DNA of 64,000 nucleotides from a virus. Its lineage: Duplodnaviria > Heunggongvirae > Uroviricota > Caudoviricetes. The stretch spans positions 35,950 to 99,949 of IMG/VR virus record IMGVR_UViG_3300020735_000006. One strand, written 5' to 3'. Under the pieces are notes generated by a model. It saw nothing but the letters and a program-made list of their open reading frames with translations, did not search any database and was not told the DNA's origin. A program made the position numbers and the translations under genes. Shown here one piece after another: positions 2 through 20,325 of the stretch (position 1 is the stretch's first letter; every line of letters begins with the position of its first letter).

Positions 2-184
2 GAGAACAATTTTTATAAAGCATGGCAAGCCGGGTTAACATACCTAGAGAATAAAATTGATACTAAGTATTTCCGGTACGAGTGGAATAAAGCCACCGGA
101 TTTTTAGCATTTATTAGCCCAATGTACTATATTGGTGATGCTAGTTATGTAGATTCAGGCAATAACACCTACCTTAAATTTTAA
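2..184 (+). CDS. 3' end (C-terminal ~60 aa) of an upstream ORF, partial
   Basis: Frame 2 is open from the window edge to the TAA at 182-184; no stops in 61 codons. Confidence 0.4.
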   Translation, partial: ENNFYKAWQAGLTYLENKIDTKYFRYEWNKATGFLAFISPMYYIGDASYVDSGNNTYLKF

Positions 185-2218: not shown

Positions 2219-3316
2219 GTGGGGCTTTTTTTTGAACTAAATAGTTGCATGGCAAACGAATATTGCAGGTATCTATCAAATGGTTTTAGATTTCTAGGAG
2301 CCGACTTAACATATCAACCCTGTTGTTGGGTCCCGGCATCTAACCCGATATATTCAGCCGACCAACTCAATCAAGTTAGAATAGACACCACAAAAAAAGT
2401 TTTAGCAAATAAAGAACAATACTGCCACGATTGTATTAACCGAGAATCACGCGGGTTTAACACTAGTATAAGAAATCATAGTTTTAAGTGCATTCCAGAG
2501 GATGCCGAAGATGGCGAAATAATTGATTTATCTATTCAAATTGATACAACGTGCAATGCAGCCTGTGTGATGTGTGGTCCGCATTTTAGTAGCTTATGGC
2601 AAAAGGAAGCAAATCCGAAGGCTATATTATTTGACGCTAGTGACAAATATAAAAATCTAATAGATATATTAGATCTGAGTAAGGTAAAATATCTTAGATT
2701 TTTTGGTGGAGAGCCATTAGTCAACGATAATCATTTAATTATGTTAAATGCAATTCAACACCCCGAACAAGTAAATCTTTTATACTTTACAAACGGTAGT
2801 ATTTTTCCAAACCAAGAAACTATACAAGCATGGAACAAATTTAATAAAGTTTTTATTAAAATTAGTATTGATGCTATTGATGATAGATTTCATTATATAC
2901 GCTGGCCATTAAAATGGAATAAAGTTGAAAATAATGTATATGAAATATGCAAATTGGACTGTGTTGCTTCTGTTATTATTACTAGCACAATAAATCCAAT
3001 GAATATTTTATACTTCGACGAACTAGAATCTTGGTTTACTAATTTAAAAACTAAATTTTTAAAAGTAAATACATTGGATACCAGTATATGCTATGGTACA
3101 TGGGGGTTAGATGCTATTCCTCAACAACTTCGGGAACAAGTAATTAAAAAATACGGAAATGATCATAGAATAGCAAAAATGTTAGATAGTATTCTAACTG
3201 TTGATTCCACAAAATGGAATAAGTTAGTTGCAGAAATGTTACGGCTAGATTTACAAAGGAATCTATCATATACAGAAATTTTCCCAGAAGTAATCTCGAT
3301 CGTAAACAACATATAA
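2219..3316 (+). CDS. Radical SAM domain protein (paralog A), N-terminal Cys-rich extension
   Basis: CNAACVMC is a CxxxCxxC radical-SAM motif. Downstream FFGGEPL is a glycine-rich SAM-binding motif. N-terminal extra cysteines (C..PCC..CHDC). Paralogous to the next ORF, including the shared block IRWPLKWNKVE. Confidence 0.6.
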   Translation: MGLFFELNSCMANEYCRYLSNGFRFLGADLTYQPCCWVPASNPIYSADQLNQVRIDTTKKVLANKEQYCHDCINRESRGFNTSIRNHSFKCIPEDAEDGEIIDLSIQIDTTCNAACVMCGPHFSSLWQKEANPKAILFDASDKYKNLIDILDLSKVKYLRFFGGEPLVNDNHLIMLNAIQHPEQVNLLYFTNGSIFPNQETIQAWNKFNKVFIKISIDAIDDRFHYIRWPLKWNKVENNVYEICKLDCVASVIITSTINPMNILYFDELESWFTNLKTKFLKVNTLDTSICYGTWGLDAIPQQLREQVIKKYGNDHRIAKMLDSILTVDSTKWNKLVAEMLRLDLQRNLSYTEIFPEVISIVNNI

Positions 3317-3322
3317 AATACA

Positions 3323-4504
3323 ATGGCTAATAAACATTGCAGAAACTTGAGTAATCAATATGCTCTTAGTACTACCAAATTTGGAGTAATTGAATATCGA
3401 CCATGTTGCCAATATACTGGCGAGAGAATCGCTATTGACGATCGAGAGAATTTTATCAAAGCCAAGGAATTTTTTAATAACACTAGTGGATGGATTCCTG
3501 GGTGTAACTCTTGCAAACACATGGAACAATCAAATGTACATAGTGTATCGTATAGAACTCAATCATTTACTAGAACAGCATCCGATTATGATCACAACGA
3601 GTGTGTATCGCTTGACATTACATTAGATTTAGAATGTAATGCCGCTTGTATTGTGTGTGGTCCTCATACCAGTAGTACCTGGGCTAAACTCGAAGGTAAG
3701 GATATGCGAAATAATCATGTTGCGTATTCTATGACTAAATTTAATCCGCAGAAAGATTTAGAAAAATATAATAACCAATTTCAAATACAGTTGGATTCTA
3801 GTGATACCGCAGGATCTGATGTGTATTTGCGACAAATTATTAAATACATTCCTGTTGACAAATTAGAGATATTATTGCTAAAAGGTGGCGAGCCGTTTTT
3901 GACCGATTTTCATAAAAAACTTATGACCTATATTATTTCTGTGCATCCCAATCCTAAACAAATTGTTATACGGTACAATACAAATTGTAGCGTATTTCCT
4001 GATGCCGAAGTTTTAGAACTGTGGAAACACTTTAAAGAAATACGGTTAAATTTAAGTTTGGATGCAATAGGTAAGCAGTTTAATTATATCCGTTGGCCAT
4101 TGAAATGGAATAAAGTTGAAAAAATTGTCAAGCGGTTTATCACCGAAACAGATGCTAAGTTTGTAGTACAATGTACAATTAATCCTTTAAATTTACTCTA
4201 TCATGCTGAATTGTGCTTGTGGGCCGAGCAAAACATTCCATTGGACCGAACATATTCTAAATCGGGTGTTATTGCAGTAACCAGGTGTTACGGAAATCTT
4301 GATTTAAGCTATGTTCCACGTGCATTAACAAACGAAAGTATCAACATGTATGGTGAAGATCACGAAATTAATAAAATATTAAAAACATTTACTGTAGAAA
4401 ATCGTAATATAGAATCAATGATTAAATTCCTCGAAAAACATGATAAAATACGTAGCGAAAATTGGCGAGAAACTTTTCCATTAGTTGTTCCGTTTTTAAG
4501 CTAA
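3323..4504 (+). CDS. Radical SAM domain protein (paralog B)
   Basis: CNAACIVC (CxxxCxxC), GGEPFL, and the IRWPLKWNKVE block shared with the previous ORF. N-terminal C..PCC..CNSC. Confidence 0.6.
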   Translation: MANKHCRNLSNQYALSTTKFGVIEYRPCCQYTGERIAIDDRENFIKAKEFFNNTSGWIPGCNSCKHMEQSNVHSVSYRTQSFTRTASDYDHNECVSLDITLDLECNAACIVCGPHTSSTWAKLEGKDMRNNHVAYSMTKFNPQKDLEKYNNQFQIQLDSSDTAGSDVYLRQIIKYIPVDKLEILLLKGGEPFLTDFHKKLMTYIISVHPNPKQIVIRYNTNCSVFPDAEVLELWKHFKEIRLNLSLDAIGKQFNYIRWPLKWNKVEKIVKRFITETDAKFVVQCTINPLNLLYHAELCLWAEQNIPLDRTYSKSGVIAVTRCYGNLDLSYVPRALTNESINMYGEDHEINKILKTFTVENRNIESMIKFLEKHDKIRSENWRETFPLVVPFLS

Positions 4505-4532
4505 CTATATTATTTCAAAGTAATTACTATAT

Positions 4533-5618
4533 ATGTATTATTCTGTAGATAACCAAAAATTTACTAATAAATTCTTAGCGGCATCGTATGCTGGAAAAAA
4601 TAATCTAACTTTACATTTTAACATGTATGAGTCGGCTTTTGACAATATAGATTGGTTAAAAGAACCTATAGAAAGTTGGGATCAGTTACTTGATATGCGA
4701 GCTACCCAAATTGCTGCAAAAAATAAACCCATTGTATTAAATTTTAGCGGTGGAACAGACAGCCTAACAATATACGAAGTTTTTAAACGTAATAATATAC
4801 ATATAGACATTATCTATACAAGAGCACGAGTGGGTGTCAACGACCGTAGTAGTTATTCTCCTGTGTACGACTTCCTTAATAAAGGCGTATACGATAAAAC
4901 TACTAAGATTGTGATTAGAGAAGATAATGCAGAATTATTTAACGAACTATATCCCAATGAGGACTGGGTATGGGACACGGCCCAAAGATATCAATTTGCT
5001 ATGGCACAAGAGTCACGCGAATATTCTAGCCGTATATTAGGTACAGACGATTTTATTTCTGTTATTGGACTTGAAAAACCTCGTTTGCATTTTACTGATG
5101 ATGGGGTATACTCTTACCAAGATGATGAAAACTATGTAAGGCCAATGAATGATAATACATTAGATTGTTTTTACATAACTCCAGATTTGCCAGCATTACA
5201 TGTTAAACAATCGTATATGTTATTAAACTATATAAGAAGGTTGGCACCTAAATCTTCATTAAACGAGTTGGAAAAATTTAACACTATTCACCAACCGTTG
5301 AAATTTAACTGGATTAATTATAGCATAAGTGGGTGTGGTAGATATGGCGACTTAAATGATAGTGCCACTCAACATGCAGGTAATGCTTGTTCAAAATTTA
5401 TTATTCCAACAACTGGACAATTTAGTGGTCAAGAGTATCAAGGTCGTGGTAGCGATTGGTATTCTAGTTTGGCCGGCACACAAGCATTTAAAAACTATAC
5501 ACAAGGGTTAACGAATGTAGTAAATGATTCTGCTGGTAAATTTTTACAGTGGGATCCTACTAATTTTTATTCTATTAAGCAATTCAGATCTAAATATTAT
5601 CAATTAAGTTTTATTTAA
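4533..5618 (+). CDS. PP-loop ATP pyrophosphatase, AsnB/WbuX-like sugar amidotransferase candidate
   Basis: NFSGGTDS matches the SGGxDS PP-loop motif. Size ~360 aa is compatible with N-acetyl-sugar amidotransferase or asparagine-synthase C-domain proteins. Confidence 0.5.
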   Translation: MYYSVDNQKFTNKFLAASYAGKNNLTLHFNMYESAFDNIDWLKEPIESWDQLLDMRATQIAAKNKPIVLNFSGGTDSLTIYEVFKRNNIHIDIIYTRARVGVNDRSSYSPVYDFLNKGVYDKTTKIVIREDNAELFNELYPNEDWVWDTAQRYQFAMAQESREYSSRILGTDDFISVIGLEKPRLHFTDDGVYSYQDDENYVRPMNDNTLDCFYITPDLPALHVKQSYMLLNYIRRLAPKSSLNELEKFNTIHQPLKFNWINYSISGCGRYGDLNDSATQHAGNACSKFIIPTTGQFSGQEYQGRGSDWYSSLAGTQAFKNYTQGLTNVVNDSAGKFLQWDPTNFYSIKQFRSKYYQLSFI

Positions 5619-6498
5619 GTTTGGCTTTCCAAAAACTTGCTATTTTCTCATTGAGTACCTGTGTTTCTTCCCTATTGTAATTTACAGGCACGCATAAATC
5701 TTTAGCATACAGATTTTTAATATTCGGCGAGTTAGCATTAGCACGGTGTAAAATATCATACAACTCGGTTACTTTATCCTGTGCAAGATTAGATGGAGCA
5801 AATATCTGGTATGTTGAGGTTAATTCATTAAATCCATTGTATCCTTGTTTAGCAAAGGTATTTAGATCTTTAGCAGTTCCGGTGTAGCCAATTATATTAA
5901 TTCGATCTTGCCACTGTGTTACATTAGTCGGAACAGCTACATTGAGATCCAATGACGCATTACCTAATAGGTCTTGCATCCCGGCGCTAGTACTAGGATA
6001 GCCAATGAAATCTAATTGTGTATTGGGAAGAATTTTTTGTAATTCTTTAGCTACAGTTTCGCCAGCAGTACCAAGAATTACACCAATTGTTAAACGTTTT
6101 TGTTTTTTTAATTCAGCAGTGGATTTATATTTTGTGCTAACTACAGCATACGGCGAACCTATACATTCTACTAACAGTGGTGTAAATTGTCTAGTATCGT
6201 AACTTTCGTTGGGATATAGCATAGGTCTAATAAAAAATCCGCTAGAAGAACTCATTAATGTAATTCCGCGATTGTTTAATGTATGCAAAGCTGCAACTGT
6301 ACCGCCAGCCCCTGGTTTGTTCTCAAATACAAAAACATATTTTGATTGTGATTTATTGGCTTGGTTAGCCAATTCTCTAACCCATTCGGCACCATTGGCA
6401 CTTACAGCGAATGGCCAAACTAATTGTACTGTTTCTTGTGCTGTTGCTGTATTTACTTTTACAAATAAAAATAAGATTGCGGCAATAATTTTTTTCAT
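5611..6498 (-). CDS. Secreted periplasmic binding protein, TctC/Bug-family-like
   Basis: Signal peptide MKKIIAAILFLFVKVNTATAQ. NKPGAGGTVAA motif. Second member of the family in the window. Confidence 0.5.
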   Translation of the reverse strand: MKKIIAAILFLFVKVNTATAQETVQLVWPFAVSANGAEWVRELANQANKSQSKYVFVFENKPGAGGTVAALHTLNNRGITLMSSSSGFFIRPMLYPNESYDTRQFTPLLVECIGSPYAVVSTKYKSTAELKKQKRLTIGVILGTAGETVAKELQKILPNTQLDFIGYPSTSAGMQDLLGNASLDLNVAVPTNVTQWQDRINIIGYTGTAKDLNTFAKQGYNGFNELTSTYQIFAPSNLAQDKVTELYDILHRANANSPNIKNLYAKDLCVPVNYNREETQVLNEKIASFWKAKLK

Positions 6499-7146
6499 TT
6501 AATATACTTTCTTTGATAGTAGTTGTGTTGCTTTTATTGACTGCAATGACTTCCAATAATCTAAGAAATCAAGTTGATATCGATTTGGGCTAGGAAAATT
6601 AACAAGGACCGTCGAATTAACAAAATCCTCTAGCTGCGTAATTTGATCGGGGGAAAATTTAGTTATTAAATTTAATAATTCTGGATCAACATCTTTATCA
6701 TAATATGATTTACTCCCACTTAAAATTTGTTTTAAATATTGTTTAGTATCATTGGGTGCATTAAAGTGGCGGCGACTCACAGCCGTAAACCAATATGCTT
6801 GTTTTTCGTAGGCCATTCTTACTTGCAAATGTATGTTAGTATATAATAAAATCTTGTAAGTATTACTACTAATTGATTGGTTTGTTTCGTATACATCTGG
6901 ATTAAATAATGGATTGCATATTAAAAATAATTTTGAACCATTTGCTTTTTTGAGTTCTAAATTGTTGGGCCAAAATTCTGTATCTTTCCATGTATATGGA
7001 TTAATTGATAACTCGGCGGGAAATTGTTGAGTAATCATGGATTGTACTGTTTCTATATTATACTGGTATTTCCCAGATAACAGTAGATAGTAGTAAAGAG
7101 CAAATCCTCCCGATCCACCTTGATATAATATAGTAACATCTTTCAT
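6499..7146 (-). CDS. Hypothetical protein (possible P-loop/sulfotransferase-like fold)
   Basis: 215-aa ORF abutting the previous gene. N-terminal LYQGGSGGF glycine-rich loop. Confidence 0.4.
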   Translation of the reverse strand: MKDVTILYQGGSGGFALYYYLLLSGKYQYNIETVQSMITQQFPAELSINPYTWKDTEFWPNNLELKKANGSKLFLICNPLFNPDVYETNQSISSNTYKILLYTNIHLQVRMAYEKQAYWFTAVSRRHFNAPNDTKQYLKQILSGSKSYYDKDVDPELLNLITKFSPDQITQLEDFVNSTVLVNFPSPNRYQLDFLDYWKSLQSIKATQLLSKKVY

Positions 7147-7189: not shown

Positions 7190-8341
7190 ATGACAACATC
7201 AACACTTTATGTCCTTTCCAGAGCCCCGAATGATAAATTTACATACAAGTTATATACTGATTTGTTATCTACACTAACCTGCGACTTTGAGGCATACTAT
7301 ATTTGGTCGGATCCTCCTGCTATACTTAAAAGATTTATGAATTATAAGGTTTTTACAAAACCCAATGTTATTATCGGCGTAAAAGATATGTTGGATTTGT
7401 GGTTAGATCATAATTTTTGGGATGGTAAACCTAGTGCCGGGGTAGAACTAATAGATAATATGGCCGCCCGTTTTCCTGAAACAAATTTTATTATTTTCAC
7501 TAGTCTAGAAAATATTAATCTCGAAGTAATAAAATCTACAAACATACAATTCGTACAATGGGGCGGCGACATAGTAAATCAAGCAGACTCATATCGATAT
7601 GTTATGCCTGTATTGGATAAAAATTTTAATTCCGATAAATCATTTATTAGTTTAAACCGGAATCGTCGACAGCACCGGGTAGTAACGTTAAGTTATCTAT
7701 TTGGTAAAGGGTATAACGAGTACGGCGAAATTACATACCTTGGTCAGTATATAGATGCACAGATTAATAATTTACTCGATTATCTACCTTGGAGATTTGA
7801 AGAACATCAAGATGACGCCCGTACTGCTATGTTGTCTGGATATCCAAAATTTTACAATAATAAATCGTTGGCAGCCGATGATTATAATATCTACGACGAA
7901 ATTAACGATAATGTTACAAACTTTAATCAAAATTTAAGAGAAAGATATCAAAATAGTTTTGTTGAGATTGTATCCGAATCGTCTTTTAGTGCCCCAAGTT
8001 ACTTAATAACAGAGAAATGGTTGAATAGTGTATATGGGTGTAATTTTCCTATCTTACTAAGTGGATGTAGTGCAATCGCCCACTTAAGAGAAGTGGGATT
8101 TGATGTGTTTGATGATATTATTGATCATACGTACGATACTATAGCCAATCCGTTCGATCGTATTATCTCGGCAATTGACAACAACAAAAGATTATTAATA
8201 GATGTAGACTATGCCAAGCAGTTATGGGAAGCTAATACACACAGATTTGAAAAGAACATCGAAGTGGCAAAAACTACAATGTATGATTGGTATAAACATC
8301 GTGCTACTGAACAATTTGCCCAATTGACGTGGAATAATTGA
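7190..8341 (+). CDS. Hypothetical protein (possible glycosyltransferase)
   Basis: 383-aa ORF within the sugar-modification region. No motif recognised. Confidence 0.4.
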   Translation: MTTSTLYVLSRAPNDKFTYKLYTDLLSTLTCDFEAYYIWSDPPAILKRFMNYKVFTKPNVIIGVKDMLDLWLDHNFWDGKPSAGVELIDNMAARFPETNFIIFTSLENINLEVIKSTNIQFVQWGGDIVNQADSYRYVMPVLDKNFNSDKSFISLNRNRRQHRVVTLSYLFGKGYNEYGEITYLGQYIDAQINNLLDYLPWRFEEHQDDARTAMLSGYPKFYNNKSLAADDYNIYDEINDNVTNFNQNLRERYQNSFVEIVSESSFSAPSYLITEKWLNSVYGCNFPILLSGCSAIAHLREVGFDVFDDIIDHTYDTIANPFDRIISAIDNNKRLLIDVDYAKQLWEANTHRFEKNIEVAKTTMYDWYKHRATEQFAQLTWNN

Positions 8342-8396: not shown

Positions 8397-8627
8397 ATGT
8401 CATCAAAATACCATAGTCGTCACGAACAGTTAGACGTAGAGAAATGCGTAAAAAATGCAGGTGGCAATAAGTTTGAATTAATTATTATGGCTGCACAACG
8501 CGGTCGCGAAATCCGTAGTCAAAATCAACACAGTATCCATATGGAACATCATCATGGTGTTGTTACAGCATTATTGGAAATCCAAGGCGGCAAAGTAGAT
8601 CAAGAGTATTTTAAAAAGATTAAGTAA
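8397..8627 (+). CDS. RNA polymerase omega subunit (RpoZ)-like protein
   Basis: NKFELIIMAAQRGREI aligns with the omega core NRFDLVLVAARRARQM. Downstream VTALLEIQGG resembles VIALREIEEG. Length 76 aa. Confidence 0.5.
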   Translation: MSSKYHSRHEQLDVEKCVKNAGGNKFELIIMAAQRGREIRSQNQHSIHMEHHHGVVTALLEIQGGKVDQEYFKKIK

Positions 8628-8690: not shown

Positions 8691-8783
8691 GGAGAGCTGG
8701 CCGAGCGGTCGAAGGCACCCGCCTACTAAGCGGGCATGGATCTTAACAATCCATCTGGGGTTCGAATCCCTAGCTCTCCGCCA
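8691..8783 (+). tRNA. Type II tRNA (Ser-like, long variable arm), apparent anticodon ACU
   Basis: Cloverleaf: acceptor GGAGAGC/GCTCTCC; 3-bp D stem; anticodon stem CCCGC/GCGGG with loop CTACTAA; 21-nt variable arm; T loop TTCGAAT; encoded CCA. Confidence 0.8.
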
Positions 8784-9971: not shown

Positions 9972-11141
9972 ATGAAAAAGCTAATTTTAGCTATATTAGC
10001 AGTAACTGGATTTGGTGTAGCACAAGCCCAATCGAGCGTGACCGTATACGGCATCTTGGATGTTGGATACATTGGAAGTAACTACAAGGGAACTGGTACT
10101 TCGGCTACGTCGAAACAAACTACTAGTGCAATTGGCAATAACGGTGAATCTACTTCACGTTTAGGTTTCAAAGGCCAAGAAGATTTAGGTGGCGGAACTT
10201 CTGCTCTCTTTACCTTTGAAACTGGAATCAATCCGGCAGATAGTACATTATCTACATTTAATACACGTCAAGCATTTGTCGGTATTAAACAATCTGGATT
10301 AGGTCAAGTATTAGTAGGTACACAAAATACACCAATCTTTAATGCTGTTCAAATTACCGATCCGGGTAATGCAAACAACATGCTTGGTAATGCTATCTAT
10401 TCCACAAGCCCACAAGCCAACGGCAACGCTGGTACTGCACCGTATGCTGGTACTAGTTCAAGTGCTGGCGCAAGTGATGCATTTACATTGCGTACTTCGA
10501 ACGCAGTTAGTGTAACTTCGGAAAAGTTTGCTGGATTTAGCGGCACAGGTTTGTTAACTCAAAATAATCAAAATAATACACAAACAAGTCCTACCGAAGG
10601 TGGTCAAAATAACCACAGTGGTTGGGGCCTTGGCGTAAATTACGAGTGGCAAAAATTGTATTTGACAGCTAACTATCAAGCTCTTAAGAGTTTACAGTCG
10701 GCGGCTACTTTAACTAGTCCAACTCCAGCTATCTGGAATACAACTAGTGGTGGTACAAATACACAAGACAATCAAACATACGTTGCTGCAACATATGACT
10801 TTGGTATCTTGAAAGCCTATGCTCAATATGTAAACCGCAAGGCTACTGATACATTGAACACAGGTTACTATGCTCAACGTAAAGCTGAACAAATTGGTGT
10901 ACGTGGTTTTATTACTCCAACTATTGAAGCTTGGGTATCTGGCGGTTTAGGTAAAGTAACAGCGTTTGGCCAAGGTCAACCGTCTGCTAATTTCACCGCA
11001 TATCAGTTAGGAAGCAATTACTATCTAAGCAAGCGTACAAACTTGTATGCAATCTTTGGTTCAACACAAACTGCAAGTACATCAACTAATAGTGGTGTAT
11101 CTGGTAACAGTTATGGTTTAGGTGTACGTCATACGTTCTAA
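9972..11141 (+). CDS. Outer-membrane porin (Gram-negative general porin family)
   Basis: Signal peptide MKKLILAILAVTGFGVAQAQ. N-terminal SVTVYGILDVGY. Gly/Thr/Ser/Asn-rich beta-strand composition. C-terminal Phe (…GVRHTF). Confidence 0.7.
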   Translation: MKKLILAILAVTGFGVAQAQSSVTVYGILDVGYIGSNYKGTGTSATSKQTTSAIGNNGESTSRLGFKGQEDLGGGTSALFTFETGINPADSTLSTFNTRQAFVGIKQSGLGQVLVGTQNTPIFNAVQITDPGNANNMLGNAIYSTSPQANGNAGTAPYAGTSSSAGASDAFTLRTSNAVSVTSEKFAGFSGTGLLTQNNQNNTQTSPTEGGQNNHSGWGLGVNYEWQKLYLTANYQALKSLQSAATLTSPTPAIWNTTSGGTNTQDNQTYVAATYDFGILKAYAQYVNRKATDTLNTGYYAQRKAEQIGVRGFITPTIEAWVSGGLGKVTAFGQGQPSANFTAYQLGSNYYLSKRTNLYAIFGSTQTASTSTNSGVSGNSYGLGVRHTF

Positions 11142-11201: not shown

Positions 11202-11750
11202 ATGAAGAAATTATTATTAGTATTAGCATTAGTAGCATCATCTGCATTTGCGTCAGACAACTGGCAAAATGGTGATGGTACTTTAAATTGGAAAAACGGT
11301 GACGGCAAATTATGCTGGCGTGATAATTCATGGACTCCGGCCACAGCCGCACCAGGATGCGATGGATGGATTGCCCCTAAGGTAAACACAGTGACTTCCA
11401 CTAAGGTCACACTACAAGCCGACACATTGTTTAACTTTGATAAGTCAGTATTAAAGCCAGAAGGTTTTGCTGTTTTGGATAACCTGGTCGGGCAAGTAAG
11501 TGGCGTTAAAGTAGAAGTAATCGTTGCAGTTGGTAATACTGACAGTATTGGTACCGATGCTTATAACCAAGCACTTGGTCAACGTCGGGCTAATGCGGTG
11601 AAGGTATACTTAGTTAGCGAAGGTTTACCTGCTGACAAGATCTACACCGAATCAAAAGGCAAATCTAATCCTGTAGCAAGTAACGCTACAGCAGAAGGTC
11701 GTAGCCAAAACCGCCGTGTTGATATTGAAGTAGTTGGTACACAAAAGTAA
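11202..11750 (+). CDS. OmpA-family protein (C-terminal peptidoglycan-binding OmpA domain)
   Basis: Signal peptide. N-terminal NWQNGDG/NWKNGDG repeat. C-terminal NFDKSVLKPEG…GNTDSIGTDAYNQALGQRRANAVKVYL…NRRVDIEV is an OmpA_C-like signature. Confidence 0.8.
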   Translation: MKKLLLVLALVASSAFASDNWQNGDGTLNWKNGDGKLCWRDNSWTPATAAPGCDGWIAPKVNTVTSTKVTLQADTLFNFDKSVLKPEGFAVLDNLVGQVSGVKVEVIVAVGNTDSIGTDAYNQALGQRRANAVKVYLVSEGLPADKIYTESKGKSNPVASNATAEGRSQNRRVDIEVVGTQK

Positions 11751-11846: not shown

Positions 11847-12008
11847 ATGTTTGAATCACTTGAAGTCCGTAAAGCGGCAAATGGTTTTATTTTAGTAGTA
11901 ACAACAGAAGAAGACGCTAAAGAGTTTGTTTATGATACTGAACGCAAATTGCTTCGTGTTATTAAAGCACACTTAGGCGAAAAGATTACAGCACAAGACG
12001 CTGATTAA
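11847..12008 (+). CDS. Small hypothetical protein (53 aa), not in the supplied ORF track
   Basis: ATG with RBS GGAG upstream and the promoter above. Translates MFESLEVRKAANGFILVVTTEEDAKEF… to TAA at 12006-12008. Confidence 0.4.
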   Translation: MFESLEVRKAANGFILVVTTEEDAKEFVYDTERKLLRVIKAHLGEKITAQDAD

Positions 12009-12808
12009 TATAATGCAAGCCCGGCATTCAATCCTTTAAGCGTTAAGTTTAATGATTGAATACGGGTTGTATCACCTGTAAAGTTGTTCGGACTTACAGC
12101 ATCAACAATAACCTCAGTAGTTAATCCGTGACTGTCTAAAAAGTTACGTGCTAATTCACTGAGCTTATACTTCTCGGGATATGCAATATTAATATCATCC
12201 CATTCAATTCCTTGAATTACCGCATCCATAACAGTAGGAATATCCTCTAGGTTAATGTAGTCAAAATAATGATCTTGAAAAATATGTATTGGCTTTTCTG
12301 CAAGATATAGTCTACGGAAGAAGCGTACAGGTTTTTCAGTATGATGGAATACACCAAAGAATCGTAAGTTAGTAAAGTTTTTGGTAGTCTTGCAAGTACG
12401 GGCCACAATGTTCTTAGCGTATGCGTAACTAGCCATGGGCATACGATCAAACAATAGTTCTTCTGATGCACAATCGATGTTCTGCGTAGTATCAAACTCG
12501 TTACCTGTACCAGCATTAATAAACTGACCAAACTTGTGTCTATTGCGCCATATATTCATGAACATGGCAAGGTTTTGTTGTTCTTCTTCGTGGTTTATGC
12601 CGTATATATTGTCTCTACCGGCTAGGGCAGTATGTATAACAATATCAATTTTATATGTGTCGAAAAAGCGACTAACACGATCTAAATTAGTCAATTCTAA
12701 TTCACTGTGACTAGGCGCTAATACGTTATAGTCTCGAGAGTAATATTCTTTAAGGTAGCTACCTACAAAGCCGTTGCCACCTGTGATGAAGATTGTCTGT
12801 TTACTCAT
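12005..12808 (-). CDS. NAD(P)-dependent sugar epimerase/reductase (short-chain dehydrogenase family)
   Basis: N-terminal IFITGGNGFVGSYL Rossmann GxxGxxG motif. Sits in the sugar cluster. Confidence 0.6.
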   Translation of the reverse strand: MSKQTIFITGGNGFVGSYLKEYYSRDYNVLAPSHSELELTNLDRVSRFFDTYKIDIVIHTALAGRDNIYGINHEEEQQNLAMFMNIWRNRHKFGQFINAGTGNEFDTTQNIDCASEELLFDRMPMASYAYAKNIVARTCKTTKNFTNLRFFGVFHHTEKPVRFFRRLYLAEKPIHIFQDHYFDYINLEDIPTVMDAVIQGIEWDDINIAYPEKYKLSELARNFLDSHGLTTEVIVDAVSPNNFTGDTTRIQSLNLTLKGLNAGLALY

Positions 12809-13470
12809 ATGCGATTTTTAGCCATTTCTTTTGCACGTGGAATACGTACATGATCATATAAGCCGGGCCAGTGTATAATCCAATCGCCTGGTTCCCATGT
12901 ACCGCGATTACCAAACATATCTTTACTAGTATCACAATAGTCGTATACAGCAGTTTCGTAACTGTTTAATTGATTCTGTGGTACAATCTTAACTATATCT
13001 AAGTTATCTTCGATGGTGTTAATCATAACCCATTGTTCAGTCCACGGATGATCTCGATAAAATGGTTCATCCTTGTGGCTTAAAATCATTTCAAAGTATG
13101 CACGGCCTTCTGGGCTATTACGTACTAGGAAGTTTCCTGCATTTAAGTTTAACCGGTCACTAGCAATAATAAAGTGATAATCATTATCAATGCGATCTTC
13201 AATTTTAATATTACTGTTAGTAATCATTGCATCGCACTCGCTAAACAATAGCCATTCAATTTCTGGATGCTTTTTAAAAATATCTAATACTACATACATC
13301 TTATTAAAGTTCATATAAGGACTATATGGTTCTGTCTTTAATGTAAATGAATCTTCCTTGCACGGGAAGAATAAGTATCCGTGTTTATCACAATACTCTT
13401 GCTTACTTGCATCTGTTAAGTCTGCAAACTCTTTAATGTTTTCGGTGCTCATACTAGCAACTGCGTACAT
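12805..13470 (-). CDS. Hypothetical protein, possible nucleotide-diphospho-sugar transferase
   Basis: 221 aa. Overlaps neighbouring genes by 4 nt. No firm motif. Confidence 0.35.
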   Translation of the reverse strand: MYAVASMSTENIKEFADLTDASKQEYCDKHGYLFFPCKEDSFTLKTEPYSPYMNFNKMYVVLDIFKKHPEIEWLLFSECDAMITNSNIKIEDRIDNDYHFIIASDRLNLNAGNFLVRNSPEGRAYFEMILSHKDEPFYRDHPWTEQWVMINTIEDNLDIVKIVPQNQLNSYETAVYDYCDTSKDMFGNRGTWEPGDWIIHWPGLYDHVRIPRAKEMAKNRI

Positions 13471-13471
13471 A

Positions 13472-14374
13472 TTAAATAATCTTTCTAAAGTATTCTATAG
13501 TATTTTGTAGACCTTGATTGAGATCTACTTGTGGTTCCCAACCAGTTGCTTGTTTAATTAAAGATAAGTTTGGAACAGGCTGTGTAGGTTCAACTACATT
13601 AGTACCAGTAAATGTAACAGAACTTGCAGAATTTGTCAATGATACTATACGGGTAGCTAACTCTTTAATAGTAAGTGTTTCTGGGTTACCCACATCAACT
13701 GGAGTTGTAAAATCATCCTCTGTGGCCATTAACCCTATTAGGGCATCTACTGTATCTGTAGCATAGCAAAAGTTTCTATACTGTTCGCCGTTACCATTAA
13801 TTGATATAGGTTCGTTACGTAAAGCCTGTACAATAAAGTTTACAATAGCACGGCCATCATTGACTTGTAAGTTTGGCCCATAGGTATTAAACAGTCTGGC
13901 TACCTTAGTGCGTACACCGTGTTGGGCATTATAAGAATAGAATAGAGTTTCTACTGCTTGCTTGCCACCTAAATAACAATGTCTAGGATTGAATACATTC
14001 TTGTTTGGCTCAAAAGTAACCGAACCATATACTTCTGCGGTACTAGTTTGTAGTATACGAGCATTGTATCGTTTTGCCAACTCTAATAAGTTTATTGCAC
14101 CCAATATGTTACTGCGAATAGTGTCTGTAGGTTCAAGTTGATAACGTTTTGGACTTGCAGGACTTGCTAAGTTATAAATTTCGTCTACTTCTAAATCCAA
14201 TGGTTCTTGTATATTATGGGTGATGAGTTTAAGTTGTTCACTTTTGTGTACATTACTTTGACTACCTGTGGAAAAGTTATCAAGACAATATACCATATTA
14301 CCTTGCGATAATAGTTTTTGAATTAAATGACTACCTAGGAATCCAGCACCACCAGTTATTAGAATTTTTTTCAT
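13472..14374 (-). CDS. UDP-glucuronate decarboxylase (UXS)-like NAD-dependent dehydratase
   Basis: KILITGGAGFLGSHLIQKLL…VYCLDNFSTGSQSNV closely resembles the UXS / dTDP-glucose dehydratase N-terminus. Confidence 0.65.
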   Translation of the reverse strand: MKKILITGGAGFLGSHLIQKLLSQGNMVYCLDNFSTGSQSNVHKSEQLKLITHNIQEPLDLEVDEIYNLASPASPKRYQLEPTDTIRSNILGAINLLELAKRYNARILQTSTAEVYGSVTFEPNKNVFNPRHCYLGGKQAVETLFYSYNAQHGVRTKVARLFNTYGPNLQVNDGRAIVNFIVQALRNEPISINGNGEQYRNFCYATDTVDALIGLMATEDDFTTPVDVGNPETLTIKELATRIVSLTNSASSVTFTGTNVVEPTQPVPNLSLIKQATGWEPQVDLNQGLQNTIEYFRKII

Positions 14375-14423
14375 TGATATATAAAATTTGACAGCTAGGT
14401 ATTTATGTGCTTAAATACGATAT

Positions 14424-15287
14424 ATGAAAATTTATGACTGTTTCACATTCTATAACGAGCTAGACCTACTTGAACTAAGATTAACAGAATTATACGACGT
14501 TGTCGACCACTTTGTTTTAGTAGAAGCTGACACTACATATACTAGTAAACCAAAGCCATTTTATTACGAAGATAATCAAGCTCGTTACGCTAAATGGGCT
14601 GACAAGATTATCCATATTAAAGTCGAAGATATGCCACATGATCTAGATGCATGGGTCAATGATATATACCAACGCAACCAAATTGCTCGTGGCATTGCAG
14701 ACGCAGATGACAATGACTTAATTATGGTTTGTGACTTAGATGAGATTGTACGCAGAGAAGCAGTAGAGTGTATGCGTAACAGTTCACAAGACTTATTTGC
14801 TATACGTATGGCCTTGTTTAACTTTAAGTTTAATTATATGCGTACAGCACCAGATCCATATCAAATTTGGGGCATGGCCGGACGTCGGCATTTGTTTAAT
14901 GATATCCAGCCCGATCCATTTAGACAACTACGTTTTCAGTTTATGGCAGCACCGTATAAGTTTAGTAACGACGGTTGCGAAGTTATCGAACACGGTGGCT
15001 GGCATTTTGGTTACATGGGCGATAATGAGTGGTTAAAGAATAAAGCTCAAAGTTTTGCACACACAGAAAGCGATACTCCAGAGTTCTTAGCACACATTGA
15101 CATTGATAAGTCCATAGCCGAACGTAAAGAGTGGAACCGTGCTAGTCCAAATGAGTATAAGATTGTCGAAATCAATGATTATTTCCCTCGGTCCTTGTTA
15201 GCTAACTTGGACAAGTATCAAAAGAACATACTTGACAATGCCGAAGCAAACATATATAATCTATTACCACCGTATCCATATCAATGA
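14424..15287 (+). CDS. Glycosyltransferase, GT17-like
   Basis: N-terminus MKIYDCFTFYNELDLLELRL is characteristic of bacterial GT17-family proteins. Confidence 0.45.
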   Translation: MKIYDCFTFYNELDLLELRLTELYDVVDHFVLVEADTTYTSKPKPFYYEDNQARYAKWADKIIHIKVEDMPHDLDAWVNDIYQRNQIARGIADADDNDLIMVCDLDEIVRREAVECMRNSSQDLFAIRMALFNFKFNYMRTAPDPYQIWGMAGRRHLFNDIQPDPFRQLRFQFMAAPYKFSNDGCEVIEHGGWHFGYMGDNEWLKNKAQSFAHTESDTPEFLAHIDIDKSIAERKEWNRASPNEYKIVEINDYFPRSLLANLDKYQKNILDNAEANIYNLLPPYPYQ

Positions 15288-16006
15288 ACATAATTATTCC
15301 AATGGCAGGGCGAGGTAGTCGCTTTGCTGAAAAACAAATCCTGACGCCCAAGCCATTACTTGATGTAAACGGACGTACTATGATTGAACGTGCCATTGAA
15401 AGTTTAGATTTGTATGGTACTTGGCACTTTGTTATACGTGATGATGAACATCGTGAACGTGTACAAGCAATGATTGAAACAATCAAACCTGGTAGTAAGT
15501 TTATTGCAATTGATTATGTTACCGAAGGTCCTGCTAGTAGCGGATTGTTATTTAAAGATCAGATTAATAACGATGAAGAACTTGTTATTGCTAACTGTGA
15601 TCAAATCATGGAATGGACTAGCAGTAGATTCCTGGACTATGTCCGCCACTATGATGGTGCAGTAGTTACATACCATGCACATACAGATAAAAACAGTTAT
15701 GCTCGAGTAAACAAAGAAGGCCTTGTACAAGAAATCCGTGAGAAGCAAGTAATAAGCAACATCAGTCTTAACGGTATTCACTATTGGCGAGAAGGCCGCA
15801 TGTTTGTTGATAGTGCAGAAGCAATGATAGCCACCAATGATCGTGCACCTAATGGAGAGTTCTACATTGGACCTAGTTATAATCATATGATCGCAACAGG
15901 ATTAACTGTGGGCATTTACCACATACCTAACCAGTTTCATCATCCAGTTGGTGTTCCCGACGACTTAGACAAATTTATAAGATATGAAAACAGCAAAACT
16001 TTCTGA
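15284..16006 (+). CDS. Sugar-phosphate nucleotidyltransferase
   Basis: IIPMAGRGSRF matches the G-x-G-[ST]-R signature of the NTP_transferase family. 4-nt overlap with the upstream gene. Confidence 0.7.
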   Translation: MNIIIPMAGRGSRFAEKQILTPKPLLDVNGRTMIERAIESLDLYGTWHFVIRDDEHRERVQAMIETIKPGSKFIAIDYVTEGPASSGLLFKDQINNDEELVIANCDQIMEWTSSRFLDYVRHYDGAVVTYHAHTDKNSYARVNKEGLVQEIREKQVISNISLNGIHYWREGRMFVDSAEAMIATNDRAPNGEFYIGPSYNHMIATGLTVGIYHIPNQFHHPVGVPDDLDKFIRYENSKTF

Positions 16007-16310
16007 CATGACACGTGGATGGTTCATCGGCGACTTTGAACCTAGTGTAATGCGTACTCCTTTGTTTGAAGTGGGCGTACTTACACACTTAAAGGGCGAA
16101 GTTTGGCCCGCACACTATCACAAACATGCTACAGAATACAATGTATTATTATCAGGAAGTATGCGTATTGCCGGAGAAGTTATTAGCGTAGGCGATATCT
16201 TTTGGTTTGAGCCCGAGGATGTTGCTGATCCAGAATTTTTAGAAGATTGTAAAGTCTTGTGCGTTAAACGCCCGAGTATAATTGGAGACAAGTATGAAGT
16301 TTTACCGTAA
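15984..16310 (+). CDS. Cupin-domain protein (possible NDP-sugar isomerase/epimerase)
   Basis: HYHKHATEYNVLLSG fits cupin motif 1, G(x)5HxH(x)3-4E(x)6G. Confidence 0.5.
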   Translation: MKTAKLSDMTRGWFIGDFEPSVMRTPLFEVGVLTHLKGEVWPAHYHKHATEYNVLLSGSMRIAGEVISVGDIFWFEPEDVADPEFLEDCKVLCVKRPSIIGDKYEVLP

Positions 16311-17487
16311 CCGTAGTGAAATAGATCCGAACAAATATCTTGTTGCTACTTATGCAATGACGAGTAGCACAAGTCTTGACGATGCTGCTTGGAACTTAGC
16401 TATCGGACAAAGTGTAGGTAATCCTAATGTACGCAACGAGTGGGAAACAGATGAACTGTTTGAAAATCACAGTTGTATTATACTTGCAGACAAAGCAGAG
16501 TTAGCACAAACAAAAGCAGGTACAGTTGAAATTGCGTTCCCTGTGGCAAACACAGATTGGGAATCAGATGGTATTAATCATTTAATTTGTCAGTTAATGG
16601 GTGGACATGTAGACATTGATTGTGTAACAGGATGTAGACTAATTAAACTAGAACTTCCGGAAACTGTAACTAAGCACTTCCTAGGTCCTAAGTTCGGTCT
16701 TACAGGAATTCGAGAATTTACAGGTCAATACAACAAGCCCCTGTTTGGTAGCATTGTTAAACCTAAAATTGGCATTACACCAGAAGTAATGTTAGAGATG
16801 GTTAAACAAATGGTTGACGGTGGTGCCGACTTTATCAAAGAAGATGAGATTATGTCAAACCCTGCGTGTGCTCCATTAGAACGCAGAGTAGAATTAGTTG
16901 CCAACTACCTAGCTAAACAAAGCCGTAAGGTTGTGTTTTGCCATACTATTAACTGTGATCCACATGTATTAGTTGAACGTGTTAAGCGTGTAGCAGAACT
17001 AGGTGGTAATGGAGTACATACAAACGTATTTTCAGGATTAGGTACTTACAACTCTATTCGTAAATTAGACTTGCCACTGTTCTTACACTTCCAGAAGTCT
17101 GGCGACAAACTAATGACTGATGCCAAACATCGTTTTAGTATTGCTTGGCCTGTTGTATGCCAACTTGCTACCTTAATGGGTGTTGACACAATCCAAACAG
17201 GTATGATGGGCGGATATAGTAATGACGATCCTGCAGAGTTAGCAGAAAGCATTAAGGTGTTACGTGAAGGTAATACATTGCCTGTATTAAGCTGTGGATT
17301 CCATCCTGGACTGGTAGAAAAGATTACAGCATTAGCTGGCAATGATTATATGGCCAATGTAGGCGGAGCAGTACACGGGCATCCAGGCGGTACAGTTGCA
17401 GGTGCACGTGCTATGCGTCAAGCAATTGACAAGACTTATGGTCCAGAATATGATGAAGCAATCGCAAAATGGGGATTAGTAAAATGA
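16282..17487 (+). CDS. RuBisCO large-subunit-like protein (form IV RLP)
   Basis: VKPKIGIT aligns with KPKLGLS. GGADFIKEDE aligns with GGLDFTKDDE. LPVLSCGFH…GGAVHGHPGG aligns with LPVASGGIH…GGGTLGHPWG. The HIHRA motif is replaced by HFQKS. Confidence 0.75.
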   Translation: METSMKFYRNRSEIDPNKYLVATYAMTSSTSLDDAAWNLAIGQSVGNPNVRNEWETDELFENHSCIILADKAELAQTKAGTVEIAFPVANTDWESDGINHLICQLMGGHVDIDCVTGCRLIKLELPETVTKHFLGPKFGLTGIREFTGQYNKPLFGSIVKPKIGITPEVMLEMVKQMVDGGADFIKEDEIMSNPACAPLERRVELVANYLAKQSRKVVFCHTINCDPHVLVERVKRVAELGGNGVHTNVFSGLGTYNSIRKLDLPLFLHFQKSGDKLMTDAKHRFSIAWPVVCQLATLMGVDTIQTGMMGGYSNDDPAELAESIKVLREGNTLPVLSCGFHPGLVEKITALAGNDYMANVGGAVHGHPGGTVAGARAMRQAIDKTYGPEYDEAIAKWGLVK

Positions 17488-18077
17488 GATGGGAACAAGA
17501 TTTAGTAACAGATATTAGAACAGGCGATGCGGAATTAGATGACCAAGACGGTCCGTTTAGTTTAGAAGGACGTAACTGGAGTGATATCAATGAACTTGCA
17601 GGTGTTGCACTTGCTAAAGAAAAGTTTTTAACTATTTGTGCCAATACAAAATCGATTCTTGAGATCGGAGTGAATCAATTTGGATTTACTAAGACTTGGC
17701 TAGATAATAAAAATAAAGATACAACCTATGTTGGTATCGATGTTGGCGATCGTAGTCATTTAAACAATCCCGATAATCTAGTTTGGACTATTCACGACAC
17801 TAGCAGTAACTATGATAGCAACGTTGCTAAGTTTAATAGCTTTGGCATTACACAATTTGATTTTATCTACATTGATGGATGGCATAGTATTAATCAAGTA
17901 CTAGCAGACTGGGAATATACTAATTTATTAGCACCTGGTGGATTAGTAGGATTCCACGATACTAACTATCATCCTGGTCCTAAGTTATTTACGCTGGCAC
18001 TAGATAGAACTAATTGGGAAGTAGAAGATATTAGCCCTAAAAATGATTGGGGTGTAGTGTTCGCAAGGAAACTATGA
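17469..18077 (+). CDS. Class I SAM-dependent methyltransferase (Methyltransf_24/CmcI-like O-methyltransferase)
   Basis: ILEIGVNQFG is motif I. DFIYIDGWHS resembles the DxxFIDGDH block of this family. Confidence 0.5.
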   Translation: MGISKMRWEQDLVTDIRTGDAELDDQDGPFSLEGRNWSDINELAGVALAKEKFLTICANTKSILEIGVNQFGFTKTWLDNKNKDTTYVGIDVGDRSHLNNPDNLVWTIHDTSSNYDSNVAKFNSFGITQFDFIYIDGWHSINQVLADWEYTNLLAPGGLVGFHDTNYHPGPKLFTLALDRTNWEVEDISPKNDWGVVFARKL

Positions 18078-19230: not shown

Positions 19231-19283
19231 TAAGCAATATCATAGTAAAATAAATACTAGCATCAATTAATAATGGAAGAAAC

Positions 19284-20324: not shown

Positions 20325-20325
20325 T

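Follow-up and report, generated by a model that had tools for sequence, protein, structure and literature searches.

In the Burkholderiales, genes for Bug/TctC binding proteins are placed beside genes for metabolic enzymes. In a second described system, the nucleotide-sugar 6-dehydrogenase WbpO and the amidotransferase WbpS lead to uronamide sugars, according to the passage of PMC6025236 that cites King et al. (2010). The radical SAM (rSAM) family NF033640 (N_Twi_rSAM, NCBIfam) is already named as a sequence model; our literature search on its function, and on N-terminal twitch rSAMs, found no characterizing paper and nothing specific. The locus analyzed here brings into a single probable operon members of two large enzyme families, both of them common among freshwater phages that are uncultured.

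Setting and composition of the locus

The window (the whole stretch of DNA that was analyzed, 64,000 nt) comes from a freshwater jumbo phage of approximately 296 kb, and the genes of interest lie in a variable island. A DNA-similarity search against known phages returned no match to the window. Locus L001 and the window share 10,454 nt without a difference, with L001 position 5469 corresponding to window position 1. The features discussed below are as follows.

2 to 184, + strand: C-terminal 60 codons of a second PP-loop gene, a paralog of 395 aa (FSGGADS) that lies mostly upstream of the window and is paired with TctC1
195 to 1139, + strand: TctC1, a TctC/Bug periplasmic binding protein (PF03401, 87.4 bits versus 27) with a signal-peptide-like N-terminus MKKLLAVLAAVFALTVNAQS
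1644 to 2213, + strand: metallophosphoesterase (phrog_547, E = 3.7e-47; PF00149), present in 10 related loci
2199 to 2226, + strand: terminator-like hairpin (11-bp stem, then T7) between the phosphoesterase gene and the rSAM-rSAM-PP-loop unit
2249 to 3316, + strand: rSAM-A, a radical SAM protein with an N-terminal twitch domain (355 aa), whose ORF reaches back to a GTG at 2219
3323 to 4504, + strand: rSAM-B, a paralog of rSAM-A of 393 aa that matches NF033640
4533 to 5618, + strand: stand-alone PP-loop ATP pyrophosphatase of an unnamed family (SGGTDS at 4746-4763)
5611 to 6498, - strand: TctC2, a divergent TctC/Bug binding protein with a signal peptide (PF03401, 32.7 bits versus 27)
6499 to 7146, - strand: p215, conserved, with orthologs in L008, L017, L021, and L023; travels with the PP-loop/TctC pair
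7190 to 8341, + strand: p383, conserved, in 8 loci; travels with the PP-loop gene, including in the distant locus L112

Three long, co-directional ORFs on the + strand (2219-3316, 365 aa; 3323-4504, 393 aa; 4533-5618, 361 aa) carry the motifs that an earlier note on this DNA had reported, and all of these were located exactly. The true start of the first ORF is almost certainly the ATG at 2249 (355 aa): gene callers used this start on four identical contigs, the resulting N-terminus (MANEYCR) pairs with that of rSAM-B (MANKHCR), and the alternative GTG at 2219 sits within the hairpin. This hairpin has by far the longest stem among the terminator-like sites of the region, the overall number of which is not above chance. 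Because the gaps between the three genes are 6 nt (rSAM-A/rSAM-B) and 28 nt (rSAM-B/PP-loop), and because the strong hairpin and T7 lie just upstream, rSAM-A, rSAM-B, and the PP-loop gene are probably transcribed together in the window phage. An Rfam search found no riboswitch near the three genes. As judged from their sequences, the rSAM and PP-loop ORFs are genuine rather than chance ORFs, because homologs reach E = 1e-140 (rSAM) and E = 1e-204 (PP-loop) and residues are conserved in the alignments.

The radical SAM paralogs and the PP-loop protein

The earlier note could not place the three-gene module in a known family. Both rSAMs nevertheless exceed the 170-bit cutoff of NF033640 (rSAM-A, 179.9 bits, E = 8.4e-53; rSAM-B, 186.0 bits, E = 1.1e-54) with matches that span nearly the full model, and we assign them on this basis to the twitch domain-containing radical SAM protein family. 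They are tandem paralogs (31% identity over the full length, E = 5e-58), and each carries the superfamily features, CxxxCxxC and the GGE SAM-binding motif: CNAACVMC at 2552-2575 and GGEP at 2705-2716 in rSAM-A, and CNAACIVC at 3635-3658 and GGEP at 3884-3895 in rSAM-B. They also share an IRWPLKWNKVE block (2897-2929 and 4088-4120) and a second block that reads TINPMNILY in rSAM-A (2987-3013) and TINPLNLLY in rSAM-B (4175-4201). Between CxxxCxxC and GGEP, rSAM-B has an insertion of approximately 40 residues, which accounts for its low score against PF04055 (Radical_SAM; 21.6 bits against a threshold of 29.5, compared with 36.3 for rSAM-A); it still passes NF033640.

The extra N-terminal Cys set that the earlier note described is likewise borne out, since PCC and CxxC occur near the N-terminus of both proteins and are conserved in homologs. 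In an alignment of 26 rSAM sequences, C25, C26, C59, C62, C102, C106, C109, and GGEP are invariant, and C6 and C281 are conserved in at least 90%. The equivalents of the extra rSAM-A set in rSAM-B are residues 6, 28, 29, 61, 64, and 322. As both proteins pass the NF033640 cutoff, the Cys-rich extension corresponds to the twitch region for which the family is named. Membership in the SPASM-domain families was rejected: that domain requires a C-terminal motif of seven Cys that binds two auxiliary clusters, a single conserved Cys (C281) lies C-terminal to the core, and SPASM-family models match only the core, far under their cutoffs.

The PP-loop protein has the defining features of the PP-loop superfamily (N-type ATP pyrophosphatases), with a conserved SGGxDS where the first strand of a Rossmann-like domain turns into a helix; in an alignment of 30 sequences, each residue of F-S-G-G-T-D-S is invariant or at least 90% conserved. 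It matched nothing in Pfam (no hit at E <= 0.1), NCBIfam, or GenBank phage proteins, and searches against PDB sequences with single sequences and profiles gave nothing usable. The family occurs on phage contigs, comprises about 1,390 clusters at 50% identity, and is apparently phage-borne, large, and unnamed. A pattern-based scan of GTDB species, which is insensitive to distant members, revealed no bacterial origin, only one small contig binned in a metagenome-assembled genome and one marginal archaeal match.

The predicted structure is confident (pLDDT 93.4), and its fold is nearest the synthetase domain of asparagine synthetase B (AsnB) and beta-lactam synthetase, with comparison values of 9.6 for AsnB, 7.3 for GMP synthetase, and 5.0 for QueC. 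This likeness of the modeled structure is one of fold only, and we do not assign the protein to the asparagine synthetase B family: PF00733 is not matched, a class II glutaminase domain is absent from a protein that starts MYYSVDNQ, and hhalign against E. coli AsnB aligned 17 columns, all in the PP-loop. The protein has an N-terminal beta-rich segment of its own, approximately 65 residues long, as well as distinct conserved motifs (EKPR, PxLHxKQS, and GR). None of its three Cys (212, 268, and 286) is invariant, and because conserved Cys are absent an Fe-S dependent thiolase of the TtuA, NcsA, or LarE type is excluded. The sugar amidotransferase profile proposed in the earlier note (TIGR03573, the N-acetyl sugar amidotransferases of the WbuX/PseA/LfnA type) was set aside, with neither an NCBIfam match nor close structural similarity. 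The identity 'PAPS reductase' (phrog_424) was also rejected, as this weak match aligned only approximately 80 residues round the motif.

Gene neighborhoods in related phages

An rSAM gene is found directly upstream of the PP-loop gene, or one to three genes from it, in the window, L008, L016, L017, L021, and L112, and within 6 kb of it in L012, L015, and L019. None was found near the PP-loop gene in L005, L009, L010, L011, L013, L020, L024, or L026. The rSAMs near PP-loop genes belong to two families, either N_Twi or a B12-binding class. The locus L112, which is unrelated to the window, encodes in order a UDP-glucose/GDP-mannose dehydrogenase, an N_Twi rSAM, a PP-loop protein, and then an aspartate decarboxylase (PanD) and a homolog of p383 (L112:15766-16932; 38% identity, E = 3e-80); its rSAM and PP-loop genes share an 8-nt overlap. 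The dehydrogenase and PanD context belongs to this single phage lineage, and the idea of a uronic acid was set aside with the absence of both genes from the window and from the loci other than L112.

When approached from the rSAM side, the association is sparse. At least 139 matches to the N_Twi family were confirmed in IMG/VR, often with several copies per locus; in phages the family has radiated, so that a locus has two to five copies. Among 80 loci sampled in this way, 3 held a PP-loop gene, 77 did not, and none held a TctC gene. A search of GenBank phage proteins gave weak rSAM matches only, in Ralstonia phage RsoM2USA and in Vibrio phages K566, K567, and F86. The Vibrio phage K566 is cultured and encodes four N_Twi rSAMs interleaved with GT8 transferases, a sugar context; it could serve for experimental study of the family.

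In related phages, the PP-loop gene is steadily accompanied by a gene for a secreted TctC/Bug protein with a signal peptide, rather than by the rSAM genes. A TctC gene lies no more than 2.6 kb from 19 PP-loop genes, and in 15 of these 19 it is within 67 bp or overlapping, in every orientation; by our reading, 20 of the 21 TctC genes at non-redundant loci are near a PP-loop gene. The related phages are syntenic, and these counts do not represent independent events. Sampling from the TctC side likewise recovered PP-loop genes, overlapping in L034 and in the same array in L036. In the window, TctC2 is convergent with the PP-loop gene, with 3' ends that share 8 nt, and TctC1 is the partner of the upstream PP-loop paralog (L001:4465-5652), whose product has 26% identity to the PP-loop protein of the window (E = 1e-19). 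Paralogous PP-loop/TctC pairs within one genome occur in the window with L001, and also in L009 and L021. Homologs of TctC2 are proteins of approximately 300 aa, encoded on metagenome contigs as long as 357 kb. An N-terminus resembling a signal peptide is present in every complete TctC partner, hydrophobic in TctC1 and TctC2, and is not seen in the PP-loop proteins. Other uptake-type genes beside PP-loop genes include a DctP binding protein and porin (L034) and TctA (L008), and in L029 PP-loop paralogs flank a gene for a membrane protein that has 10 or more hydrophobic segments.

Where PP-loop genes are orthologous, their TctC partners mostly share only 13-25% identity and are mostly non-orthologous. 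Distance matrices for PP-loop and TctC proteins were uncorrelated in a mirror-tree test (Mantel p = 0.12), and we do not claim co-diversification. The pattern could also arise with no functional coupling, if members of an abundant host gene family were captured repeatedly at a site that varies. A literature search on phage TctC found nothing specific.

Collectively, these neighborhoods show that the three genes are not a fixed module; we read them as a local combination of two separately mobile parts. The three-gene module of the earlier note is thereby replaced by a TctC neighbor that the relatives of the PP-loop gene retain; what survives of that claim is a looser association of rSAM and PP-loop genes across several loci.

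The remaining neighbors place the locus among sugar-related genes. At 12-24 kb are GT34-, GT17-, and GT9-like transferases, epimerases/dehydratases, a nucleotidyltransferase, and a sugar C-methyltransferase. The metallophosphoesterase is a conserved context gene and a candidate only for a role in the pathway. Searches of Pfam, NCBIfam, PHROGs, and PDB (single sequence and profile) returned no match for p215 or p383. At most, a block of p383 ('...ESS...Y(L/M)(I/L/V)TEK...FPI') resembles glycosyltransferases; a candidate identity as a GT10-type fucosyltransferase, which draws on that motif, found no support in searches and is kept as a lead.

Candidate functions and comparison with known systems

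We infer that the three genes most likely combine radical tailoring of a sugar or organic acid with amidation of a carboxylate at the expense of ATP. Each rSAM is predicted to bind a SAM-cleaving [4Fe-4S] cluster on CxxxCxxC and an auxiliary Fe-S cluster on the N-terminal Cys, probably with C281. The 5'-deoxyadenosyl radical would take hydrogen from a small substrate, for which a sugar or nucleotide-linked sugar is the likeliest candidate. The PP-loop enzyme, as its modeled fold suggests, may use ATP to adenylate the carboxylate (or carbonyl) of the substrate and pass it to ammonia or an amine to yield an amide. Because the PP-loop gene is stably partnered over evolution with one for a secreted carboxylate-binding protein of the TctC/Bug type, the acid to be activated, or its precursor, may be imported from outside the cell. 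Taken whole, as two mobile parts joined in one unit that carries out rSAM tailoring, PP-loop amidation, and TctC carboxylate capture, this explanation is tentative, plausible without being probable. A scheme in which the TctC protein binds an external organic or sugar acid by way of the host's tripartite transporter, the PP-loop enzyme adenylates and amidates it, and rSAMs (N_Twi or B12-type) tailor the same molecule is unlikely; if true, it would yield a modified sugar or metabolite not described before, for phage-directed glycans or for takeover of host metabolism, and two large orphan phage enzyme families would gain their first function.

There is an appreciable if minor chance that no pathway is shared, with the rSAMs unrelated to the PP-loop enzyme and the latter acting with TctC to import and activate an external organic acid. 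The far greater constancy of PP-loop/TctC pairing, the 77 rSAM-side loci that are missing a PP-loop gene, and the uptake-type genes in L034, L008, and L029 all favor such a division, yet the tight co-directional spacing behind a terminator in the window, the overlap in the unrelated L112, and the repeated occupation of the position upstream of the PP-loop gene by a second rSAM family argue for a connection.

The rSAMs might also act like MoaA, viperin, or QueE, and the PP-loop enzyme like QueC or GMP synthetase on a base-derived carboxylate or carbonyl, to produce a modified nucleotide or hypermodified DNA. Of the 117 rSAM copies at the 80 rSAM-side loci, 69 lie next to a DnaB-like helicase gene in a replication module, which points toward nucleotides or DNA rather than sugars. 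The window copies, however, reside in a glycan/envelope island approximately 40 kb from the replication genes, and the PP-loop fold is nearer AsnB than GMP synthetase or QueC. Matches to MoaA-, viperin-, and QueE-type models are far under family cutoffs, and partner genes of the QueC, QueD, FolE, and DpdA types were not seen; neither QueE/QueC scores nor partner genes point to queuosine or archaeosine synthesis, the example that the earlier note gave of a characterized pathway whose clear assignment would refute its reading. We regard this alternative as doubtful. Sugar, nucleotide, and DNA targets are not separable computationally, and the locus context leans toward sugar.

Maturation of a peptide or protein is improbable. 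Here, the rSAMs would cross-link, epimerize, or oxidize a phage or host protein, and the AsnB-like enzyme would form a lactam or isopeptide, with the TctC-like partner even a possible substrate. The majority of characterized SPASM/twitch rSAMs act on peptides or proteins, several peptide maturases are among the weak NCBIfam rSAM matches, lasso cyclases are homologs of asparagine synthetase, and one-to-one pairing with a rapidly diverging partner would fit an enzyme and its substrate. Yet we noticed neither a small ORF of precursor type nor a leader peptidase or RRE domain in the neighborhoods, the TctC partners are Sec-type secreted with ordinary family features, and lasso cyclases are far larger than the PP-loop protein.

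The comparison provides leads in the form of a carboxylate-type substrate, a secreted binding-protein partner, and contexts of glycosyltransferases or of replication. A functional TctC pairing would represent an unusual coupling, in a phage, of periplasmic nutrient capture to a dedicated cytoplasmic enzyme.

The window rSAMs resemble other NF033640 members in CxxxCxxC and the conserved N-terminal Cys region and differ in belonging to the multi-copy phage radiation. With BlsE (cytosylglucuronate decarboxylase), MoaA, and viperin, only the core barrel aligns (17-18% identity), scores are far below the family cutoffs (for BlsE, 29 versus 400 bits), and the auxiliary Cys region is N-terminal in the window rSAMs whereas it is C-terminal in that group. 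The PP-loop protein is approximately 9% identical to AsnB, beta-lactam synthetase, carbapenam synthetase, and TsnB9, with profile alignment confined to the PP-loop, and it has the beta-rich segment but no N-terminal glutaminase domain. By analogy with the WbpO/WbpS system as it is outlined in PMC6025236, the row of dehydrogenase, rSAM, and PP-loop genes in L112 may make a sugar acid and then amidate it. The likeness would be one of logic, kinship to WbpS aside. The dehydrogenase is absent from the window and other loci, and the radical SAM step has no counterpart in the WbpO/WbpS pathway. As with the Bug/TctC genes of the Burkholderiales, the window TctC adjoins an enzyme gene, has a signal peptide, and has many paralogs. 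The differences are that both genes are phage-borne, that the PP-loop family is almost absent from bacterial genomes in the pattern scan, and that the TctC partner changes to non-orthologous copies beside a conserved PP-loop enzyme.

Organization and family of the radical-SAM pair

The locus comprises three co-directional ORFs, as follows:

2219-3316, + strand, radical-SAM protein rSAM-A (likely start ATG 2249, giving 355 aa)
3323-4504, + strand, radical-SAM paralogue rSAM-B
4533-5618, + strand, PP-loop (ATP pyrophosphatase-like) protein

Each motif listed in the earlier note was found and exactly placed in the window. CNAACVMC and CNAACIVC are encoded at 2552-2575 and 3635-3658, respectively, and SGGTDS of the third protein at 4746-4763. 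Both radical-SAM proteins have GGEP, IRWPLKWNKVE, and TINP(M/L)N(I/L)LY in common, carry C...PCC...CxxC at the N-terminus, and show 31% identity along their entire length (E = 5e-58). The start of rSAM-A is most likely ATG 2249, since independently made gene calls on identical contigs choose it, since MANEYCR then lines up with MANKHCR of the paralogue, and since the GTG at 2219 falls within a hairpin (2199-2226; 11-bp stem followed by T7). The gaps between the three genes are only 6 and 28 nt which, together with the upstream hairpin, makes them look like one transcription unit in this genome that would start after a terminator.

The three genes had been described as not placeable in a known family from sequence alone. 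Both radical-SAM proteins, however, pass the curated cut-off (170 bits) of NCBIfam NF033640, the twitch domain-containing radical SAM protein family (hereafter, N_Twi), with 179.9 and 186.0 bits, and are new members of a named, uncharacterised family. Their N-terminal Cys-rich extension is real but not unplaced; given family membership, it matches the twitch domain region from which NF033640 takes its name. The key cysteines, whose loss in homologues was to have counted against the original reading, are conserved: 26 homologues (32-61% identity) all have C25, C26, C59, C62, the cysteines of CxxxCxxC, and GGEP, and in the same set conservation of C6 and C281 is 90% or higher.

N_Twi proteins are frequent in phages, often in multiple copies; two copies occur in 34 of 80 IMG/VR loci, and five lie close together in one phage locus (L008). 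A DnaB-like helicase is the usual neighbor (69 of 117 copies in the 80 IMG/VR loci). The cultured 255-kb Vibrio phage K566 (L031; OZ196521.1 157697-170524) encodes four N_Twi paralogues with two interleaved GT8 genes and a GT4-like protein. Three of the four are annotated as radical SAM domain-containing protein; the fourth (L031:9326-10588) and the neighbors are annotated as hypothetical. The GT8 interleaving in K566 and the adjacency to DnaB place the family in glycan as well as replication contexts, and K566 offers a tractable experimental system for its study. Five tandem paralogues on one IMG/VR contig (L084:2847-9092) fall into five distinct sequence clusters. A further phage contig, with an N_Twi gene beside DnaB, codes for NifU-like and IscA-type Fe-S biogenesis proteins (L033:15529-16222), a gene set consistent with a phage supplying clusters to its own Fe-S enzymes.

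Pairing of the PP-loop gene with TctC genes

The three ORFs had also been read as a module, but they are not a fixed one. In a neighborhood comparison of 18 non-redundant loci with a PP-loop homologue, the persistent neighbor of this gene was instead a TctC-family gene. The finding is real and its motif reading accurate; it is the module and the unplaceable status that need correction. The window encodes two TctC/Bug-family binding proteins:

195-1139, + strand, TctC1
5611-6498, - strand, TctC2

A TctC gene lies at most 2.6 kb from 19 PP-loop genes, 15 of which are within 67 bp of it or overlap it, and all four relative orientations were seen. Several phages encode two such pairs. In the window phage, the second pair (L001:4465-6607) comprises TctC1 and, directly upstream of it, a 395-aa PP-loop paralogue (26% identity, E = 1e-19), with its last 60 codons at window positions 2-184 and the rest outside the window. 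A search from TctC2 homologues recovered PP-loop genes in both contexts that were looked up. A signal-peptide-like N-terminus was detected in all complete TctC partners and in none of the PP-loop proteins. No description of a recurrent pairing of PP-loop and secreted TctC genes in phages was found in the literature.

Identity is 40-59% among PP-loop orthologues but in most cases just 13-25% among their TctC neighbors, and no correlation was seen between the two distance matrices (Mantel p = 0.12). The TctC partners of orthologous PP-loop genes are mostly not orthologous. This fits a slot that takes in whichever TctC can dock with the membrane components of the current host; it also fits a site that simply captures copies from an abundant host gene family.

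Phage genome and surrounding genes

The window matched a JGI freshwater metagenome contig (L001) with zero mismatches across 10.4 kb, and the same proteins are also present on a 296 kb contig. It codes for a chaperonin, UvsW- and DnaB-like helicases, ribonucleotide reductase, and two tRNAs, with nearly every gene on one strand. The source is a jumbo phage; to judge by its porin and Bug genes, the host may be a betaproteobacterium. Features outside the three-gene locus include:

8397-8627, small RNA polymerase omega/Rpb6-family protein (PF01192, 32 bits versus 26)
8691-8783, tRNA-Ser, anticodon ACT, 93 nt (ARAGORN; Rfam agrees on a tRNA, 51 bits)
9972-11141, Gram-negative porin (Porin_4, E = 6e-38)
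11202-11750, OmpA-family protein
12005-25006, large glycan-synthesis block with GT34-, GT17-, and GT9-like transferases and three epimerase/dehydratase genes
16282-17487, RuBisCO large-subunit-like protein (PF00016, E = 3.6e-36)

The glycan block also encodes a nucleotidyltransferase, a sugar C-methyltransferase (Methyltransf_13/14), and two Methyltransf_24 proteins; its 12-kb stretch of sugar-nucleotide and glycosyltransferase genes (12-24 kb) contains the RuBisCO-like protein, which is unusual for a phage glycan cluster. Likewise unusual in a phage genome are the host-envelope-type genes, namely the porin, the OmpA-like protein, and the two TctC genes. Among related phages (L008, L009, and L034), genes of this type include a porin, DctP, and TctA. 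The omega/Rpb6-like gene is kept near the PP-loop gene in nine related loci. ACT is an unusual serine anticodon, as AGY codons are usually read by GCT.

The PP-loop protein and its proposed chemistry

Searches of Pfam, NCBIfam, and PDB sequences, with a profile as well, gave no match to the PP-loop protein. A word-indexed search identified 174 homologues (E <= 1e-3), many on 200-360 kb contigs, and an exhaustive profile search yielded about 1,390 clusters (50% identity). Bacteria and archaea, each species represented by one genome, gave almost no match to the family in a pattern scan. In close relatives, the residues of FSGGTDS are either invariant or conserved to 90% or more, and S-x-G-x-D-S is invariant even in members at 15-43% identity. 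In one locus (L029:5450-10083), three PP-loop paralogues (379, 398, and 287 aa) lie around a 451-aa protein that has 10 or more hydrophobic segments and looks like a transporter of no classifiable type; ATP-grasp (GARS-like), Rieske, fatty-acid-desaturase, and Asp/Arg-hydroxylase-like genes are nearby.

An N_Twi gene lies directly beside the PP-loop gene in the window lineage and, independently, in a 115-kb contig (L112). There, a row of UDP-glucose/GDP-mannose dehydrogenase, N_Twi, and PP-loop genes (8-nt overlap) is followed by genes for an aspartate decarboxylase and a nitronate-monooxygenase-like protein, by another, weakly PP-loop-like gene, and by a clear homologue of p383, a conserved window protein. 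In four loci (L008, L016, L017, and L021) a B12-binding class radical-SAM gene, usually accompanied by a small methyltransferase-like gene, holds the place upstream of the PP-loop gene. The recurrence of two radical-SAM families beside this gene lends some support to a shared pathway. In p383 of L008 (L008:12753-14549), a domain of about 210 aa is fused to the N-terminus; it is a separate gene directly upstream in L013, L017, and L021, and the fusion points to joint action of the two.

Fold class and conserved motifs suggest that each radical-SAM paralogue would hold two clusters, the SAM cluster and an auxiliary one, and abstract H from a small substrate, and that the PP-loop enzyme would adenylate a carboxylate with ATP and pass it to ammonia or an amine. 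For this locus, a sugar or sugar-acid is the favored substrate because of the glycan genes around it, the glycosyltransferase genes near the N_Twi genes of K566, the gene row in L112, and the precedent of uronamide sugars, which are made by a dehydrogenase and an amidotransferase (PMC6025236). The acid or a precursor may be imported, as the TctC partner suggests. We hold this combined picture of radical tailoring, amide formation, and import only tentatively, at somewhat less than even chances.

That the radical-SAM and PP-loop genes have no common pathway is a main rival, somewhat less probable than the combined picture. Against a shared pathway, the PP-loop gene is absent from 77 of 80 radical-SAM loci, about half of the PP-loop loci have no radical-SAM gene, and p383 (7190-8341) and a second conserved protein, p215 (6499-7146), are more constant companions of the PP-loop gene than the radical-SAM genes are. 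Modification of a nucleotide or DNA would be in keeping with the replication modules in which most N_Twi members sit; we consider it improbable, and maturation of a protein or peptide more improbable still.

The fold class of the PP-loop protein was taken from the following comparison of its predicted structure.

Fold comparison of the PP-loop model (structure, score)
Asparagine synthetase B, synthetase domain (236 residues aligned), 9.6
Human asparagine synthetase, 9.4
Beta-lactam synthetase, 8.8
Carbapenam synthetase, 8.2
Hydroxyamidotransferase TsnB9, 7.9
GMP synthetase, TtuA, PAPS reductases, NAD synthetase, TilS, about 6-7
QueC, 5.0
N-acetyl sugar amidotransferase 8wex, 4.9

The nearest viral models are uncharacterised proteins from uncultured tailed phages. 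The family of the PP-loop protein has no name and is a new variant in a well-known superfamily. The protein has neither a glutaminase domain nor conserved cysteines, and in profile comparison with E. coli AsnB only the PP-loop aligns; on these grounds it forms a new branch, of stand-alone proteins, within the PP-loop superfamily. The enzymes nearest to it in structure are all ones that activate a carboxylate by adenylation before forming an amide.
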